Shown in pieces: positions 54,057 to 63,310 of a stretch of DNA of 64,000 nt. Location: the IMG/VR virus record IMGVR_UViG_3300044960_000113, positions 64,001-128,000 of that record; one strand, 5' to 3'. Within the stretch, counting starts at the first letter, position 1. Each line of letters begins with the position of its first letter. The position numbers were made by a program, and so were the translations under genes. A model generated the notes under the pieces. The model worked only from the letters and a program-made list of their open reading frames with translations. It was not told where the DNA came from and ran no database searches. The DNA comes from a virus.

Positions 54057-54151
54057 TGGTAGTCCCCCACGGTTACGATCCGTGCCGTTCCAGCCAATCT
54101 AGCCGGTCTCGCGAGTTTATAAGACTCGCCCGCTCACCAGAGCTGAGGACT
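54057..54151 (-). tRNA. Atypical tRNA with UAU anticodon, long variable arm and 4-nt D-loop
   Basis: AGTCCTC/GGGGACT A CCA; GCTC-TGGT-GAGC; GCGAGT-CTTATAA-ACTCGC; CCGGCT/GGCTGG variable stem; T-loop ATCGTAA. Confidence 0.75.
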
Positions 54152-55262: not shown

Positions 55263-55886
55263 CTATTGCCCCATAATTGGTATTTTATTTAATTTTTTAA
55301 ATGCCCATTTTCTTTCAGAACAAAACCAACATTTATCACAATAACCAACAGTTTGTTCTGTACAAGAATGTGTATATTCTAATAAATATTCTACATTTTC
55401 TCTATAATATATATCAATAATATGATATTTAAAAATATCAATAAATGGTCTAGATATTTTATTTGGCAAAATGTTTCCTTTAATTCTAATAGGTCCGGAA
55501 AAATTTGTATCAAGATTTTCTAATGGTATTGAATTACCAGCTAAAAAAATAAAATCAACTATATTAGATTTAATAATTTTTTCTATTGTTAATGGTACTA
55601 TTTTATAATGGGGTGTTGATTTATCAATATCAATAGCTTCATGTTTTAAATTATTTAATCCCATTTTATCTAATACTCTATTGCTATTGATGATATTGTC
55701 ACCAATAACTTTGTTTATTGTAAATACTGTTAATGGATAATTTGGGAAATATTTTGTTAAGAGATGAAGTAATATTGTACTATCAGTACCACCACTGTGT
55801 AAAATTCCAATAGATTTTATATTATTTGGAATCTCTAATGTTATAGTTCGTTCATCATTGATTGGTCCACACTTTAATTCTATCAT
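55263..55886 (-). CDS. PP-loop ATPase (QueC-like)
   Basis: LHSGGTDS; HSC...CDKCWFCSER. Confidence 0.7.
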   Translation of the reverse strand: MIELKCGPINDERTITLEIPNNIKSIGILHSGGTDSTILLHLLTKYFPNYPLTVFTINKVIGDNIINSNRVLDKMGLNNLKHEAIDIDKSTPHYKIVPLTIEKIIKSNIVDFIFLAGNSIPLENLDTNFSGPIRIKGNILPNKISRPFIDIFKYHIIDIYYRENVEYLLEYTHSCTEQTVGYCDKCWFCSERKWAFKKLNKIPIMGQ

Positions 55887-56290: not shown

Positions 56291-56476
56291 TTATATCCAA
56301 TTTACTATATTTTTATAACTAGTTATAAATTTATCATTTAGTAAAGTTTTACATTCAATAAAATTATCATCTAACCAATTTTCAACATAGGCAAAAATAA
56401 TTTTATTATTAATTTCAACTTTTACTAATCCAGTTTTAAATGCATGTTCCATTAATTTAATGTCACCTTTTTCCAA
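56291..56476 (-). CDS. Hypothetical protein
   Basis: Short packed ORF; start uncertain. Confidence 0.4.
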   Translation of the reverse strand: MEKGDIKLMEHAFKTGLVKVEINNKIIFAYVENWLDDNFIECKTLLNDKFITSYKNIVNWI

Positions 56477-56652
56477 ACGTCAAAAGCTTTATAAAATTCT
56501 TGATCATTATTAAATTCAATTTTAACAACATCATCATTATGTGTTAAATAATCGTTAATATTCCAAATATCCCAATCATAAATTCCTTCAGAATTAAGAA
56601 GGTTTTGAAATCTATTAAAATATTCCTTTTTAATAACAAGGCCATATGCCAT
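56452..56652 (-). CDS. Hypothetical protein
   Basis: ORF with AGGAG RBS. Confidence 0.5.
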   Translation of the reverse strand: MAYGLVIKKEYFNRFQNLLNSEGIYDWDIWNINDYLTHNDDVVKIEFNNDQEFYKAFDVWKKVTLN

Positions 56653-56730
56653 TTTATTTATCTCCTTTTATTATTTCCAAATAATTTTTATTTGTTATTC
56701 ATCATATAATTTCTTTAGTTTATATTTATT

Positions 56731-57076
56731 TGGTGCCACCACCCGGAGTCGAACCGGGATGACCTAATTAGTCGACGGATTTTAAGCGGTTTTTTCCTAA
56801 CGTTTCCATTAGGCCCGGACTATCTCTTCACCTTTCATTTCTGTTAAGGTGATGGGCGTTCTAAGCTGGTTATTAAGAGGACTCAGAATCATTTTAAATA
56901 AGACTCTACCTCTCCAGTAGTCTCTACACCTTCAAATGATGTATCATTTGCTTGGCTCGCGATCGCCATTTTTAACAGGCTCTCCCGAATTAACCCATTG
57001 TTCACTTTGATATTTCTATCAAAGGCGGACTAGGTCGTTACCTTTCCGTTGCGTCTACCAATTCCGCCATGGTGGC
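56731..57076 (-). tRNA. tRNA-Leu(UAA) split by a group I intron (exon 1 57076-57045, exon 2 56786-56731)
   Basis: Joined exons give GCCACCA...ACGGA CT TAA AA TCCGT...long variable arm...GGTTCGACTCC...TGGTGGC A CCA (88 nt). Confidence 0.9.
56787..57044 (-). mobile_element. Group I intron, 258 nt, no ORF
   Basis: P element AATTCGGGAGAG, Q GGCGATCGCGAGCC, R GTAGAGACTA, S AAGAGATAGTCC; P3 ATGGGT/GCCCAT; GAAA-capped P2 and P9; P9.0 GG/CC then omega-G. Confidence 0.92.
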
Positions 57077-57161
57077 ATATGTATATATTATAAAAATTTT
57101 AAAGAACTATTAATTATAACTTTGTATTTATATTTTATTAAATATAATAATTAATTTCTTT

Positions 57162-57470
57162 CTAATGAATTACTTGTTGATTACTATATAACGTTAATAC
57201 TTCTTCCCAAAATTCTTTCATTTCGGGATTTTTTTCTATTGCTGTTAATAATAGAGGAATCCAATCTACAATTTCATCACTATATGAAATAATTAAATCT
57301 TTAATATGTGTTAAATCTGTCATCTCAAAAAGAATAATTTCTATCTGATCACCATTAATATCATTAATGAAACCTGTAACAATATCACTATCATCATTTT
57401 CAAATACAAGTTGTGCTGGTTTAATACCGTCTGGATCTTCTGCCTTAATTGTATATCGTTGTGTAATCAT
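57162..57470 (-). CDS. Hypothetical protein
   Basis: Packed ORF. Confidence 0.55.
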   Translation of the reverse strand: MITQRYTIKAEDPDGIKPAQLVFENDDSDIVTGFINDINGDQIEIILFEMTDLTHIKDLIISYSDEIVDWIPLLLTAIEKNPEMKEFWEEVLTLYSNQQVIH

Positions 57471-57494
57471 AATTATTTTTTAAAAATAAAACAA

Positions 57495-57701
57495 TTAATT
57501 AAATTCTTTATTAATATAATAATGTAACAATTTATCTTTAATCATTTCTGGAATACAAGAATATCCTTCTTCTAAATAAAATCGCGGTGAATCACCCCAT
57601 GCTCTATTTCTCAAAAAATTGGCAAATGCTAATCTATGACCTTGATTTTCGACATCAAATTGAATTTCAGGACGTGTTTTAAGAATATAAACTCTTTTCA
57701 T
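57495..57701 (-). CDS. Hypothetical protein
   Basis: Packed ORF. Confidence 0.55.
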   Translation of the reverse strand: MKRVYILKTRPEIQFDVENQGHRLAFANFLRNRAWGDSPRFYLEEGYSCIPEMIKDKLLHYYINKEFN

Positions 57702-58781: not shown

Positions 58782-59978
58782 TTATAACATGCAATTTTTT
58801 AATAATATAAATCCATTCCTACCACCGAATCCAAATGAATTTTTGAGAGCATATCTAATCTGTTTTTCTTTAGGTTTATGCATTACGAAATCTAGGTTAG
58901 CGTCTAATGGGTCGTTTAAGTTCATCGTATGTGGGATTAATGAATGTTTCATAGCCATAATAGTATATATTAATTCAACAATGTTTGATGAATGAATACA
59001 ATGTCCTATATGTCCTTTATTACTACTTATTGATACACCTGGAAAATATTTTTCCATTAAACTAGCTTCTATATCATCACCAACTGGAGTAGATGTTGCA
59101 TGTGCATTTATATAATCTATTTGTCCATTAAAATTTTTCAAACATCTTTCTAAAGCAATTCTTGAACTTTTCATTTCTTTATCTGGTGCTGTTAAATTAT
59201 TTCCATCATTTTGAAAACCTAAACCAATAATTTCTGCATAAATTTTAGCATTTCTTTTTTCAGCATGTTCTAATGTTTCTATAATTAAACATGCATGTCC
59301 ATTAGCAATCATAAAACCATCTCTATTTTTATCAAATGGTCTAGATATTTCTTTTTTAGATAATGCACCTAAATTTTCAAACCATGTAATATCTAAATAG
59401 TTACAACCATTACTTGATGTTCCAACTATAGTACATTGAAGATTATTTTCACTCATTATCTTCAAAGCATAATCTATACTATAAAAACCCGTTGAACATG
59501 CAGCAGATAATGTTAAAGACTGACCTGTTAAATTATATCTAGTTTGTATACAATTTGAAATAAAATCTGAACTATAATTTAATGCTATGAAAGGATTTAA
59601 TCGCCCAAAGGTATTATTAATATAATCTAAATAATCTAATGCTATATTTCTTGTAGAAGAACTAAAAACAACTGGAACTTCTTTACCGTGAATATTTATG
59701 TTTGCATCTTTAATAGCATGTTCAACAACACCTAAAGCAATTTTAGAATTATTAGTTAATCTTCTTAACTCTTTTTCAGTATATCCATATTTTGTTAAAT
59801 CTGGAACTATTTGTTTTTCTAAAAAACAGAATTTTGTTTTTATGTTTTTATTTTTTAATGAGTCTATATTAGACGTGGATGTTAAGTTTTGATTATTTGT
59901 AATAATATTATTAAAACATTCACTGGGATCAGATCCTAATGAATCATGGATACCAATACCTGTTATTACAAATCTCAT
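58782..59978 (-). CDS. fabF: Beta-ketoacyl-ACP synthase II
   Basis: Catalytic Cys-His-His: SAACSTG, NAHATST, KGHIGH; RPFDKNRDGF; KNSFGFGG. Confidence 0.88.
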   Translation of the reverse strand: MRFVITGIGIHDSLGSDPSECFNNIITNNQNLTSTSNIDSLKNKNIKTKFCFLEKQIVPDLTKYGYTEKELRRLTNNSKIALGVVEHAIKDANINIHGKEVPVVFSSSTRNIALDYLDYINNTFGRLNPFIALNYSSDFISNCIQTRYNLTGQSLTLSAACSTGFYSIDYALKIMSENNLQCTIVGTSSNGCNYLDITWFENLGALSKKEISRPFDKNRDGFMIANGHACLIIETLEHAEKRNAKIYAEIIGLGFQNDGNNLTAPDKEMKSSRIALERCLKNFNGQIDYINAHATSTPVGDDIEASLMEKYFPGVSISSNKGHIGHCIHSSNIVELIYTIMAMKHSLIPHTMNLNDPLDANLDFVMHKPKEKQIRYALKNSFGFGGRNGFILLKNCML

Positions 59979-61591: not shown

Positions 61592-63310
61592 TTATCCACA
61601 TTTACTAGAACCACATTGCATACATTTATGACATCCTTCTTGATATACAACCTTTTCACTTCCACATTCTGTACATTTTGCACCTTCAACTATTTCACCA
61701 TCTTTAATAAATGATGCTAGAAATTTTTTAATCTGGAAAATAAAACTTCCAACATAAACATCTTTAATGCTATCAAGTGTTGCAACAATATTTTTGATTA
61801 ATACTCCATGTCTAAGATTTAAAGAAATCATTCTAGCAATTTTAGAAGCATTATCATTTGATTTAATTTTTTCTAACACTTTATCTATATGCTCTTGTTT
61901 AATATTTTTTCTTTTTGCTAATTCTGTCAATTTATCAATAGCATCTAATGTTATAACATTTTTTTCATGATGATTTGTATGAACAAATAATGCAAATGGT
62001 CTAGTGCGTGTTTCATTCCAAACAACAGTTAGATACCATTTTCTTCCTTCAGCACGTAAAGTTTTCATTGATGCTTCTGCAGTTTCTGGAAGAATTACAT
62101 CATCTAAAATAATTTCCTCATCATAACCATTTTTATCTGTTTCTTTTGAAGATAGTACAGCTGTCATTGTACCTGTTCTGTATGTTGTTACACCTTTAAC
62201 ATATCCAGATTTATAAACATCTAAATAAACATTTTTAAAATCATCAAATGGATATTCATGTGGAACATTGACAGTTTTTGACATAGCACTGTCAACCCAT
62301 CTTGCAAATCCAACTAAATCATTAACATGATCTTCAACAGTCAATCCATTCAATGCAGTAACAGCCCATGGTGCTTTTGGATTCCATTCATTTTTTTCTT
62401 TTAAATATCTAACACCATAATCAGAACACGTAACCTCTTTAGTCAATCCTCTATTTTTATCGATTTTATAAACTATACCATTATGTTTTCCTTTAAGAAT
62501 TTCTTCATCACCTTCTTTTGTGAATTTAAAAATTTTTGTTTCATGCCACTCACCATCGTACCATTTAGGTGTTTCTTCAATCATATCTTCTGGAATAGAT
62601 GGAACAATAACCGTTCTTATATATTCTGGCATAAATATTGGTTCTAATCCACTAGATACAACATTTGCTAATATAGAAGTATTTCCTGTTGGTTGTATCG
62701 ATAATAATGAACTATTCCTAATTCCAACAGTTTTTAATTTTTCCATATATGATTTTGATAGACCTAATGATTGAATAAATGGATTTTCAGAATGTTTTTG
62801 TGGGTCACATAATTTAAACATTCCTTTTTCTTCTGCTAAATCAATAGATGACATATATGCACTTCTAGCTATGGTAGACATAACCTTTTCACGCAATTCA
62901 TGTGATTTATCAGAACCAAATTTTATTTTCAACATAAATAATGATGATGCCCAACCAAGAATACCAATACCAATGCGACGCTTATTTTTCATTGAATATT
63001 CATATTCAGGAAGTGGTGCATTAGATAAAGTATTAACATTATCTAAGAAACGAACAAGATAACCTGTATATTTTGCTATTTTTTTATAATCAAAATCTGT
63101 ACAATCTTCATTAATAAATTGAGTTAAATTTAATGAAGATAAACAACAAATACCACCTGGAGCCAACATTTGTTCACCACAATTATGAACTAAAATTCCA
63201 TTTGCAAAAAAATTATGATTTTTGGTAGTAGTTAAATCAAAAACATCTTGATTTTCAGTTATTTTTATAGATTTAATTTTTAATTTGCGGAGGTTGTTGT
63301 TTGTTTCCAT
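61592..63310 (-). CDS. nrdJ: Split-intein C-part (43 aa) plus class II ribonucleotide reductase C-extein
   Basis: NFFANGILVHN|CGEQ; RRIGIG, SIQPTGNTS, SSGLEP, AMSKTVN, KGVTTYR; C-terminal zinc ribbon. Confidence 0.9.
   Translation of the reverse strand: METNNNLRKLKIKSIKITENQDVFDLTTTKNHNFFANGILVHNCGEQMLAPGGICCLSSLNLTQFINEDCTDFDYKKIAKYTGYLVRFLDNVNTLSNAPLPEYEYSMKNKRRIGIGILGWASSLFMLKIKFGSDKSHELREKVMSTIARSAYMSSIDLAEEKGMFKLCDPQKHSENPFIQSLGLSKSYMEKLKTVGIRNSSLLSIQPTGNTSILANVVSSGLEPIFMPEYIRTVIVPSIPEDMIEETPKWYDGEWHETKIFKFTKEGDEEILKGKHNGIVYKIDKNRGLTKEVTCSDYGVRYLKEKNEWNPKAPWAVTALNGLTVEDHVNDLVGFARWVDSAMSKTVNVPHEYPFDDFKNVYLDVYKSGYVKGVTTYRTGTMTAVLSSKETDKNGYDEEIILDDVILPETAEASMKTLRAEGRKWYLTVVWNETRTRPFALFVHTNHHEKNVITLDAIDKLTELAKRKNIKQEHIDKVLEKIKSNDNASKIARMISLNLRHGVLIKNIVATLDSIKDVYVGSFIFQIKKFLASFIKDGEIVEGAKCTECGSEKVVYQEGCHKCMQCGSSKCG

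Follow-up and report, generated by a model that had tools for sequence, protein, structure and literature searches.

An IA2-type group I intron in a phage tRNA-Leu(UAA) gene with a predicted shifted 5' splice site and no wobble pair

Introduction

How does a group I intron select its 5' splice site if the exon that it interrupts ends in a purine held in a Watson-Crick pair? This question is raised by a tRNA-Leu(UAA) gene in a virus record of IMG/VR (184 kb, about 52% complete, 27% GC, strong PHROG matches, 34 tRNA genes), whose sequence is contained in DNA runs from hot-spring or microbial-mat metagenomes. The gene lies in the 64,000-nt stretch of the record analysed here, which is called the window. 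In ribozymes of the Tetrahymena type, a G-U pair with the U on the exon strand is regarded as a strict requirement (PMC6155759), and the activity of the Anabaena intron was abolished by reversing the splice-site pair (PMC12355055). Because of these results, a purine at position -1 in a Watson-Crick pair should be a poor substrate. According to a 2014 review, moreover, all phage group I introns then known lie in protein-coding genes, a picture from which an intron family in a phage tRNA gene would depart.

Detection of the intron-containing tRNA gene

When introns were allowed (option -i), ARAGORN detected a tRNA-Leu(taa) gene at positions 120731-121076 of the genome and reported a 258-nt intron in it, given as 'acgga-Intron-cttaa'. 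The coordinates of the gene and of its predicted elements are listed in Table 1. Exon 2, as read from the sequence, begins with CUUAAAAUCCGU at 56786. A local search of 600 nt with the Rfam Intron_gpI model (RF00028, gathering cut-off 50 bits) gave a match on the minus strand from 57041 to 56796 that covered the full model (1-253) with 62.9 bits and an E-value of 1.3e-15. After in-silico deletion of 57044-56787, the remaining sequence was called by ARAGORN as a tRNA-Leu(taa) with a long variable arm, A73 and the anticodon UAA. These results confirmed the observation of a preceding sequence-only reading that the gene is a tRNA-Leu(UAA) interrupted between A31 and C32 by a group I intron. There was no sign of a sequence error at 57044, the first intron position: the contigs of two DNA runs (depth about 12), which possibly, and indeed probably, represent data of the source sample, were identical over 56400-57500 and contained no variant at the locus. 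No RNA run containing the sequence was found. When the locus was compared by blastn with phage and plasmid records, the only match was a tRNA fragment.

Table 1. Predicted elements of the split tRNA-Leu(UAA) gene (window coordinates)
Feature	Coordinates	Strand	Details and basis
tRNA-Leu(UAA) gene, type II, A73, encoded CCA, intron-split	56731..57076	-	ARAGORN, introns allowed
Exon 1, 32 nt: acceptor 5' strand, D arm, anticodon-stem A27-A31	57045..57076	-	last base A31
P1 5' strand: exon bases C28 G29 G30 A31	57045..57048	-	pairs with 57029-57026
Group I intron, 258 nt, IA2-like, ORF-free	56787..57044	-	P7.1/P7.2 present; 3'-terminal G
First intron nucleotide A	57044..57044	-	faces guide G57030; sequence, fold
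P1 extension hairpin AGGU-AACG-ACCU, 4 bp	57032..57043	-	MFE fold
Internal guide 5'-AGUCCG-3'	57026..57031	-	directly upstream of P2; sequence
P2, 8 bp, GAAA loop	57005..57024	-	compensatory changes
P4-J4/5-P5-J5/4-P4'	56957..56988	-	J4/5 GA 56982-56981, J5/4 GA 56964-56963
P6 and P6a	56928..56956	-	all 7 P6a pairs with compensatory changes
J6/7 end, P7 5' strand, P7.1/P7.2	56866..56925	-	P7 5' strand GACUA 56922-56918
P3 3' strand	56852..56857	-	partner 56998-56993
P8, J8/7, P7 3' strand	56818..56851	-	P8 56851-56829, J8/7 AAGAGA 56828-56823, P7 3' strand UAGUC 56822-56818
P9.0, P9 hairpin with GAAA loop, A-rich linker, omega-G	56787..56816	-	P9.0 G56816, G56815 with C56788, C56789; P9 56813-56796; omega-G 56787
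Exon 2, 56 nt: C32-U33-U34-A35-A36-A37-A38, anticodon-stem 3' strand, long variable arm, T arm, acceptor 3' strand, A73, CCA	56731..56786	-	

Rfam scans of the whole 64-kb window, performed with both the gathering and the E-value thresholds, missed the intron owing to their speed filters. A genome-level search with RF00028 also missed it in its own genome and was blank in phage c-st, so that blanks in such searches are uninformative. Further introns of the record may escape whole-window scans in the same way as this 62.9-bit intron (56600-57200) did.

Exon junction and 3' splice site

A scan of viral contigs for exon 1 returned 19 loci, consisting of 18 intronless tRNA-Leu(UAA) genes and one gene (on contig L006) with a classical intron inserted after U34. 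All 18 intronless genes read ...ACGGA-CUUAAAAUCCG, and the exon-1 segment GGAATTGGTAGACGCAACGGA is the same in all of them as in the window. Because these genes continue in this way, the join of A31 with C32 exactly rebuilds the common phage anticodon arm, which means that exon 1 has to end with an A that pairs with U. The junction is without sequence ambiguity, since the intron starts with A and exon 2 with C. In the intron family described below, A31|C32 joins were recognised by ARAGORN as tRNA-Leu(taa) in 6 of the 6 members with a complete exon 1, and joins made one base later were reported as 'tRNA-???'. The earlier statement that a canonical tRNA needs a cut after A31 is therefore upheld by both the intronless genes and the ARAGORN joins.

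At the 3' end, RNAalifold analysis of an eight-member alignment recovered P9.0, in which the bases just after P7' pair with those just before the last G. This helix covaries (column pairs 262/293 and 263/292), being GG/CC in the window, AU(G)/(C)AU in most members and AA/UU in L263. Because P9.0 covaries, the omega-G can be placed at 56787, and exon 2 therefore starts at C32, as had been claimed from the single sequence. The omega-G directly precedes C32 in every member found, and all of them end ...G|CUUAAAA; the search patterns forced the 3' GC context for most members, but not for L419. A 3' splice site after C56786, which would make omega a C and give a 7-nt loop with A32, was rejected, since P9.0 covariation puts a G at the intron end and the chemistry of the G site needs an omega-G beside the scissile bond.

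The predicted 5' splice site lacks a wobble pair

The guide AGUCCG is the exact complement of the exon 1-exon 2 sequence CGGA|CU expected at the ligated junction. Its UCCG part (57029-57026) pairs with C28-A31 to form P1, A31 being opposite U57029, and the next two guide bases, G57030 and A57031, are unpaired in the predicted precursor fold and complementary to C32 and U33, with which they could form P10. In the MFE folds, P1 is followed by a 1x2 internal loop, the P1 extension and P2, with A57031 bulged; the fold of 57049-57004 has a z-score of -4.3. At the splice site defined by the exons, the purine of a Watson-Crick A-U pair thus lies on the exon side, in place of the near-universal U-G pair of group I introns, and the guide G faces an A. 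In canonical introns, the U of the U-G pair stands at the place that corresponds to A57044. The A31 register is in conflict with the textbook G-U rule, and the perfect guide match, the A-U last pair and the G facing A that had been read from the letters were all found as described.

The reach of P10 distinguishes the two possible registers. With a cut after A31, P10 is contiguous from the junction, with 2 bp in six lineages (C32-G and U33-A) and 1 bp in L269; in L274 it reaches 5 bp, every base of GCGGACUUAA having its complement in UUAAGUCCGC. With a cut after the first intron base, P10 has 0 bp in 8 of 8 lineages.

An alternative canonical P1 formed by AAAGGU (57045-57040) and GCCUUU (57026-57021), with U57040-G57026 as the splice-site pair, was also considered and rejected, because it would compete with the 8-bp P2 and yield no tRNA, and because L138, with AAAACC, does not conserve it.

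Within the D arm, the segment GGCGGA|A (57062-57068) can pair with the guide UCCGCC over 6 bp, compared with 4 bp in the real P1, and an A again faces the guide G. This possible decoy site is also present in L419 (GGUGGA) and absent from the other members.

A family of related introns

Pattern scans revealed the same arrangement in viral contigs (L138 and L419) and in metagenome contigs (L262, L263, L269/270/275/285, L274 and L278), L419 coming from the viral-contig scan, among the matches listed after filtering. Another broad scan of viral contigs added no new member among the matches listed. Together with the window, the family comprises at least eight diverged lineages, all viral or metagenomic, with a mean column identity of 68%. 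The same pattern gave 11 matches in genome contigs, all attributable to chance, so that bacterial members were not confirmed there. A literature search found no published description of a tRNA-Leu intron family at 31/32 with an A-U pair.

In all lineages with an exon 1, P1 has the layout CGGA / N / extension stem / (A or U)G / UCCG. Six lineages have A as the first intron base N and L274 has U, and the guide G is invariant in 8 of 8 lineages. The extension stem differs in sequence between lineages and keeps its pairing, the covarying forms in relatives being AAC/GUU, GAC/GUC, AGUUCU/AGAGUU and AAAUUU/AAAUUU. The alignment with homologous phage introns that had been proposed as a check could be made with seven relatives, and because these diverged relatives keep the layout, the intron is probably a working variant.

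The acceptor stems of the family are perfectly paired although their sequences differ (GCCACCA, GCCGCAU, GUCGCAG, GCCCGGU and GCCCCGA), which argues that the tRNAs are under selection. Judged from these substitution patterns and from those of the intron core given below, the family shows purifying selection on both the tRNA and the ribozyme.

A recognisable exon 1 was not found in L278 (contig Ga0154020_10344520, 1298 nt, minus orientation). This contig bears a tRNA-Leu(UAA) with a classical U34/A35 group I intron that has an HNH-type ORF, and a copy of the 31/32-type intron with exon 2 follows directly after the CCA of this first tRNA. Ten-base complementary segments (AGGAGUGUAU and AUACACUCCU) flank the first tRNA, and tRNA-like 5' and 3' fragments are located at the contig ends. 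The arrangement could be nested, rearranged or chimeric.

The ribozyme core

RNAalifold recovered the helices P2, P3, P4, P5, P6/P6a, P7.1/7.2, P8 and P9.0 from the eight sequences, and compensatory double changes were observed in 35 of the 56 predicted pairs between P2 and P9.0. Together with the Rfam match, this covariation bears out the claim that all core elements are present. Because 35 of 56 pairs keep their pairing through double changes, the ribozyme is under selection and not a relic. The hairpins P7.1/P7.2 lie between P7 and P3', with covariation in columns 147-155/184-198, and two such extra hairpins are a feature of the IA2 subgroup (PMC4227781). A 22-nt insertion in the P7.1/P7.2 region (56884-56905) was observed only in the window copy of the eight-member alignment.

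In 8 of 8 members, two G residues face each other at the fourth pair of P4 (56985/56960); the pairs beside it covary, and J4/5 is GA in 7 of 8 members. Related phage introns in protein genes, with U at the predicted splice site, have G-C at the fourth P4 pair and AA in J4/5. In known ribozymes, J4/5 docks the wobble pair of the splice site. In the seed alignment of Williams 2020, GA in J4/5 also occurs in some U-G introns, and for this reason the signature is taken as a lead and not as evidence.

Proposed mechanism

The locus is probably best explained by an active ribozyme whose 5' splice site is shifted and has no wobble pair, so that the intron would splice with a cut after A31. Guide UCCG (57029-57026) and exon bases C28-A31 would form P1, and guanosine would attack the phosphate that follows A31, which puts the cut one nucleotide upstream of the base opposite the guide G. 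The pair at the reaction site would then be a Watson-Crick A-U, with the A-G opposition, the bulged A and the hairpin of the P1 extension coming next. Once the first step is complete, opening of the P1 extension would allow G57030 and A57031 to pair with C32 and U33 as P10. Finally, omega-G (56787), placed by P9.0, would enter the G site and the exons would be joined, the product being a canonical tRNA-Leu(UAA) with the loop CUUAAAA. The non-canonical 5' splice-site selection suggested by the sequence-only reading is supported by the intronless junctions, the ARAGORN joins, the P10 register, the eight lineages and the precedent of the group B IStrons described below.

It is possible, and we propose it only tentatively, that this represents a mode of 5' splice-site selection without any wobble pair, in which the cut falls one base before the unpaired guide G and the bulged A, and that the core may have co-adapted to it through the P4 G-G opposition and the J4/5 GA. 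A stronger variant of the no-wobble reading may be a cut after A57044 with a tRNA-Leu bearing an 8-nt anticodon loop.

Alternative readings

The cut could also fall one base later, after A57044 where it faces G57030, in which case the tRNA-Leu would have an 8-nt anticodon loop (ACUUAAAA) and perhaps altered or frameshifting decoding. By the canonical rule, cleavage follows the nucleotide that pairs with the guide G (PMC6155759); that G is invariant throughout the family, and in L274 the base facing it is a U, which makes a textbook U-G pair at that very place. However, no lineage has a P10 in the later register, and the extra loop base is not conserved, being A in six lineages and U in L274, whose product could form a 6-bp stem closed by a 6-nt loop. 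Moreover, the tRNA-Leu is no longer recognised by ARAGORN, the exons rebuild the common phage tRNA-Leu arm exactly without that base, and the group B IStrons, which have the same P1 layout, cut one base before the U-G pair. The 8-nt loop, which had been offered as the alternative before the family was collected, is therefore disfavoured, and we consider it unlikely. In L274, the canonical U-G pair one base downstream of the required site could nevertheless compete with it.

Still less likely is an excision that is assisted or that takes another route, be it a protein cofactor, the use of both sites, or slow, regulated splicing that would limit the main leucine tRNA. In its favour, the reactive pair does not have the wobble geometry that known ribozymes require, and the P4 G-G opposition and J4/5 GA form an unusual core signature beside the element responsible for docking the splice-site pair. 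Against this, no homing endonuclease, maturase or other recognisable candidate gene lies beside the tRNA, Pfam searches of the flanking small ORFs having given no match, and the core is complete and covaries like that of an autonomous ribozyme.

That the intron no longer splices and the gene is inactivated, as a decaying insertion that a host supply of tRNA-Leu(UAA) makes tolerable, is very improbable: the missing U-G pair and the L278 copy without a recognisable exon 1 would agree with decay, but eight lineages with 68% mean identity keep all tRNA stems and ribozyme helices through compensatory changes, P9.0, omega-G and the guide are still matched to the exons, and the tRNA serves 75% of the leucine codons of the phage.

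Comparison with known group I introns

The closest precedent for a shifted 5' splice site is given by the group B IStrons, represented by BcISt1 of the Bacillus cereus group and CbISt3/4 of Clostridium botulinum phages (Tourasse, Stabell and Kolsto 2014, PMC4227781). In BcISt1, the 5' exon ends in G, and splicing after this G was confirmed in vivo by RT-PCR and sequencing (PMC4227781). Splicing thus occurs one base before the U-G pair, and an internal loop follows that pair (PMC4227781). The window intron is similar in being of IA2 type with P7.1/P7.2 and P9.0, in having a 5' exon with a purine end, and in the guide G facing the first intron base. According to the MFE folds, all lineages of its family with an exon 1 have the group B IStron layout, the position of the cut itself being predicted; L274 has exactly this P1 layout, and the window and the other members have the same with A-G replacing U-G. 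The group B IStrons, however, keep the shifted U-G pair and have G at -1, whereas the window intron has at -1 an A in an A-U pair and, like most members, an A as the facing base. They also carry transposase ORFs of the IS607/IS200 type and, in their 3' part, a long AU-rich stem of inverted repeats, end in CGG and occupy GG-ending sites anywhere. The window intron, by contrast, is a 258-nt, ORF-free element that ends in CCG, lies in a tRNA and has a target ending in GGA; no similarity to these elements was found by blastn. The core of CbISt3 of phage c-st looks different by eye; its P1 and P4 could not be aligned by eye, and no shared signature is claimed.

The classical tRNA-Leu(UAA) intron (Leu.3Ug) shares with the window intron the host gene and anticodon, and is a self-splicing group I intron that is mostly ORF-free. 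It belongs, however, to IC3 and is inserted between U34 and A35 with a U-G pair, whereas the window intron has P7.1/P7.2 and lies at A31/C32, outside the U34/A35 position, with an A-U pair. As the sequence-only reading had stated, it is the classic intron that lies within the anticodon. The viral contig L006, which bears a tRNA cluster, carries the classical intron after U34 (258-278 and downstream), and therefore both intron types occur in phage tRNA-Leu genes.

Several bacterial introns are described in Williams 2020. Leu.1Ug (Mga42) is IA-like, with the same exon bases (ucggaU|) and a GAGUCCGC segment resembling the window guide; it sits after U32 with a canonical U-G pair, in contrast to the window intron, which sits after A31 with an A-U pair. 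The same survey reports 72 tRNA-Leu introns of class Leu.3Cg, whose splice-site pair is C-G. They share with the window intron a non-wobble pair, but their -1 base is still a pyrimidine and their guide still has its G. A '0Ag' class is absent from the text of the survey (about 80,000 bacterial genomes, with the 31/32 site tested) and from its seed alignment, and the text reports no non-U class beyond Leu.3Cg. A canonical Leu.1Ug sister form was not found in a search of IMG/VR, and the 25-mer of Mga42 had no match in genome contigs.

The closest cores found were those of IA2-type phage introns in protein genes (L097, L118 and L065 of IMG/VR), with 73-84% identity over P6-P7 and J8/7. Introns of this type share the motifs AAGGUGUAGAGACUA and GGUGAAGAGAUAGUCC with the window intron. 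They differ in that they interrupt ORFs and have U-G at the predicted 5' splice site (for L097 inferred from P1 and ORF continuity read by eye), a fully paired P4 and AA in J4/5.

The sequence comparisons support the description of an IA2-type group I intron that interrupts a phage tRNA gene and has a predicted shifted 5' splice site without a wobble pair. A conserved natural family with A-U at the reactive position, if true, would mean that the wobble rule can be replaced by helix architecture, and would add to the group B IStrons, the one exception demonstrated by experiment. With a length of only about 350 nt, the transcript is directly amenable to an in vitro test.

Genomic context

Among 102 long ORFs, UUA and UUG account for 75% of the leucine codons. 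The split tRNA is thus predicted to serve the main leucine codons of the phage, about 75% of the total, and splicing efficiency could limit phage translation because the intron lies in the tRNA that reads them.

Other features of the record were observed. At 54057-54151 (minus strand) of the window, ARAGORN reported a 95-nt 'tRNA-Ile(UAU)' with a long variable arm, which was not reported by the Rfam tRNA model at E <= 0.01 and is odd or doubtful. Outside the window, at 148363-149144 of the same genome, ARAGORN -i proposed a tRNA-Arg(CCU) with a 706-nt 'intron' containing a 222-aa ORF. Rfam found an uninterrupted tRNA in this locus (positions 367-438 of the extracted segment) and no group I core, and the arrangement is probably an ORF inserted beside a tRNA together with a duplicated 5' fragment. 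Finally, the window holds a ribonucleotide reductase fragment (61592-63310, minus strand) with an intein-splicing domain match at its N-terminus, as well as a beta-ketoacyl synthase (58782-59978) and a QueC-like protein (55263-55886).
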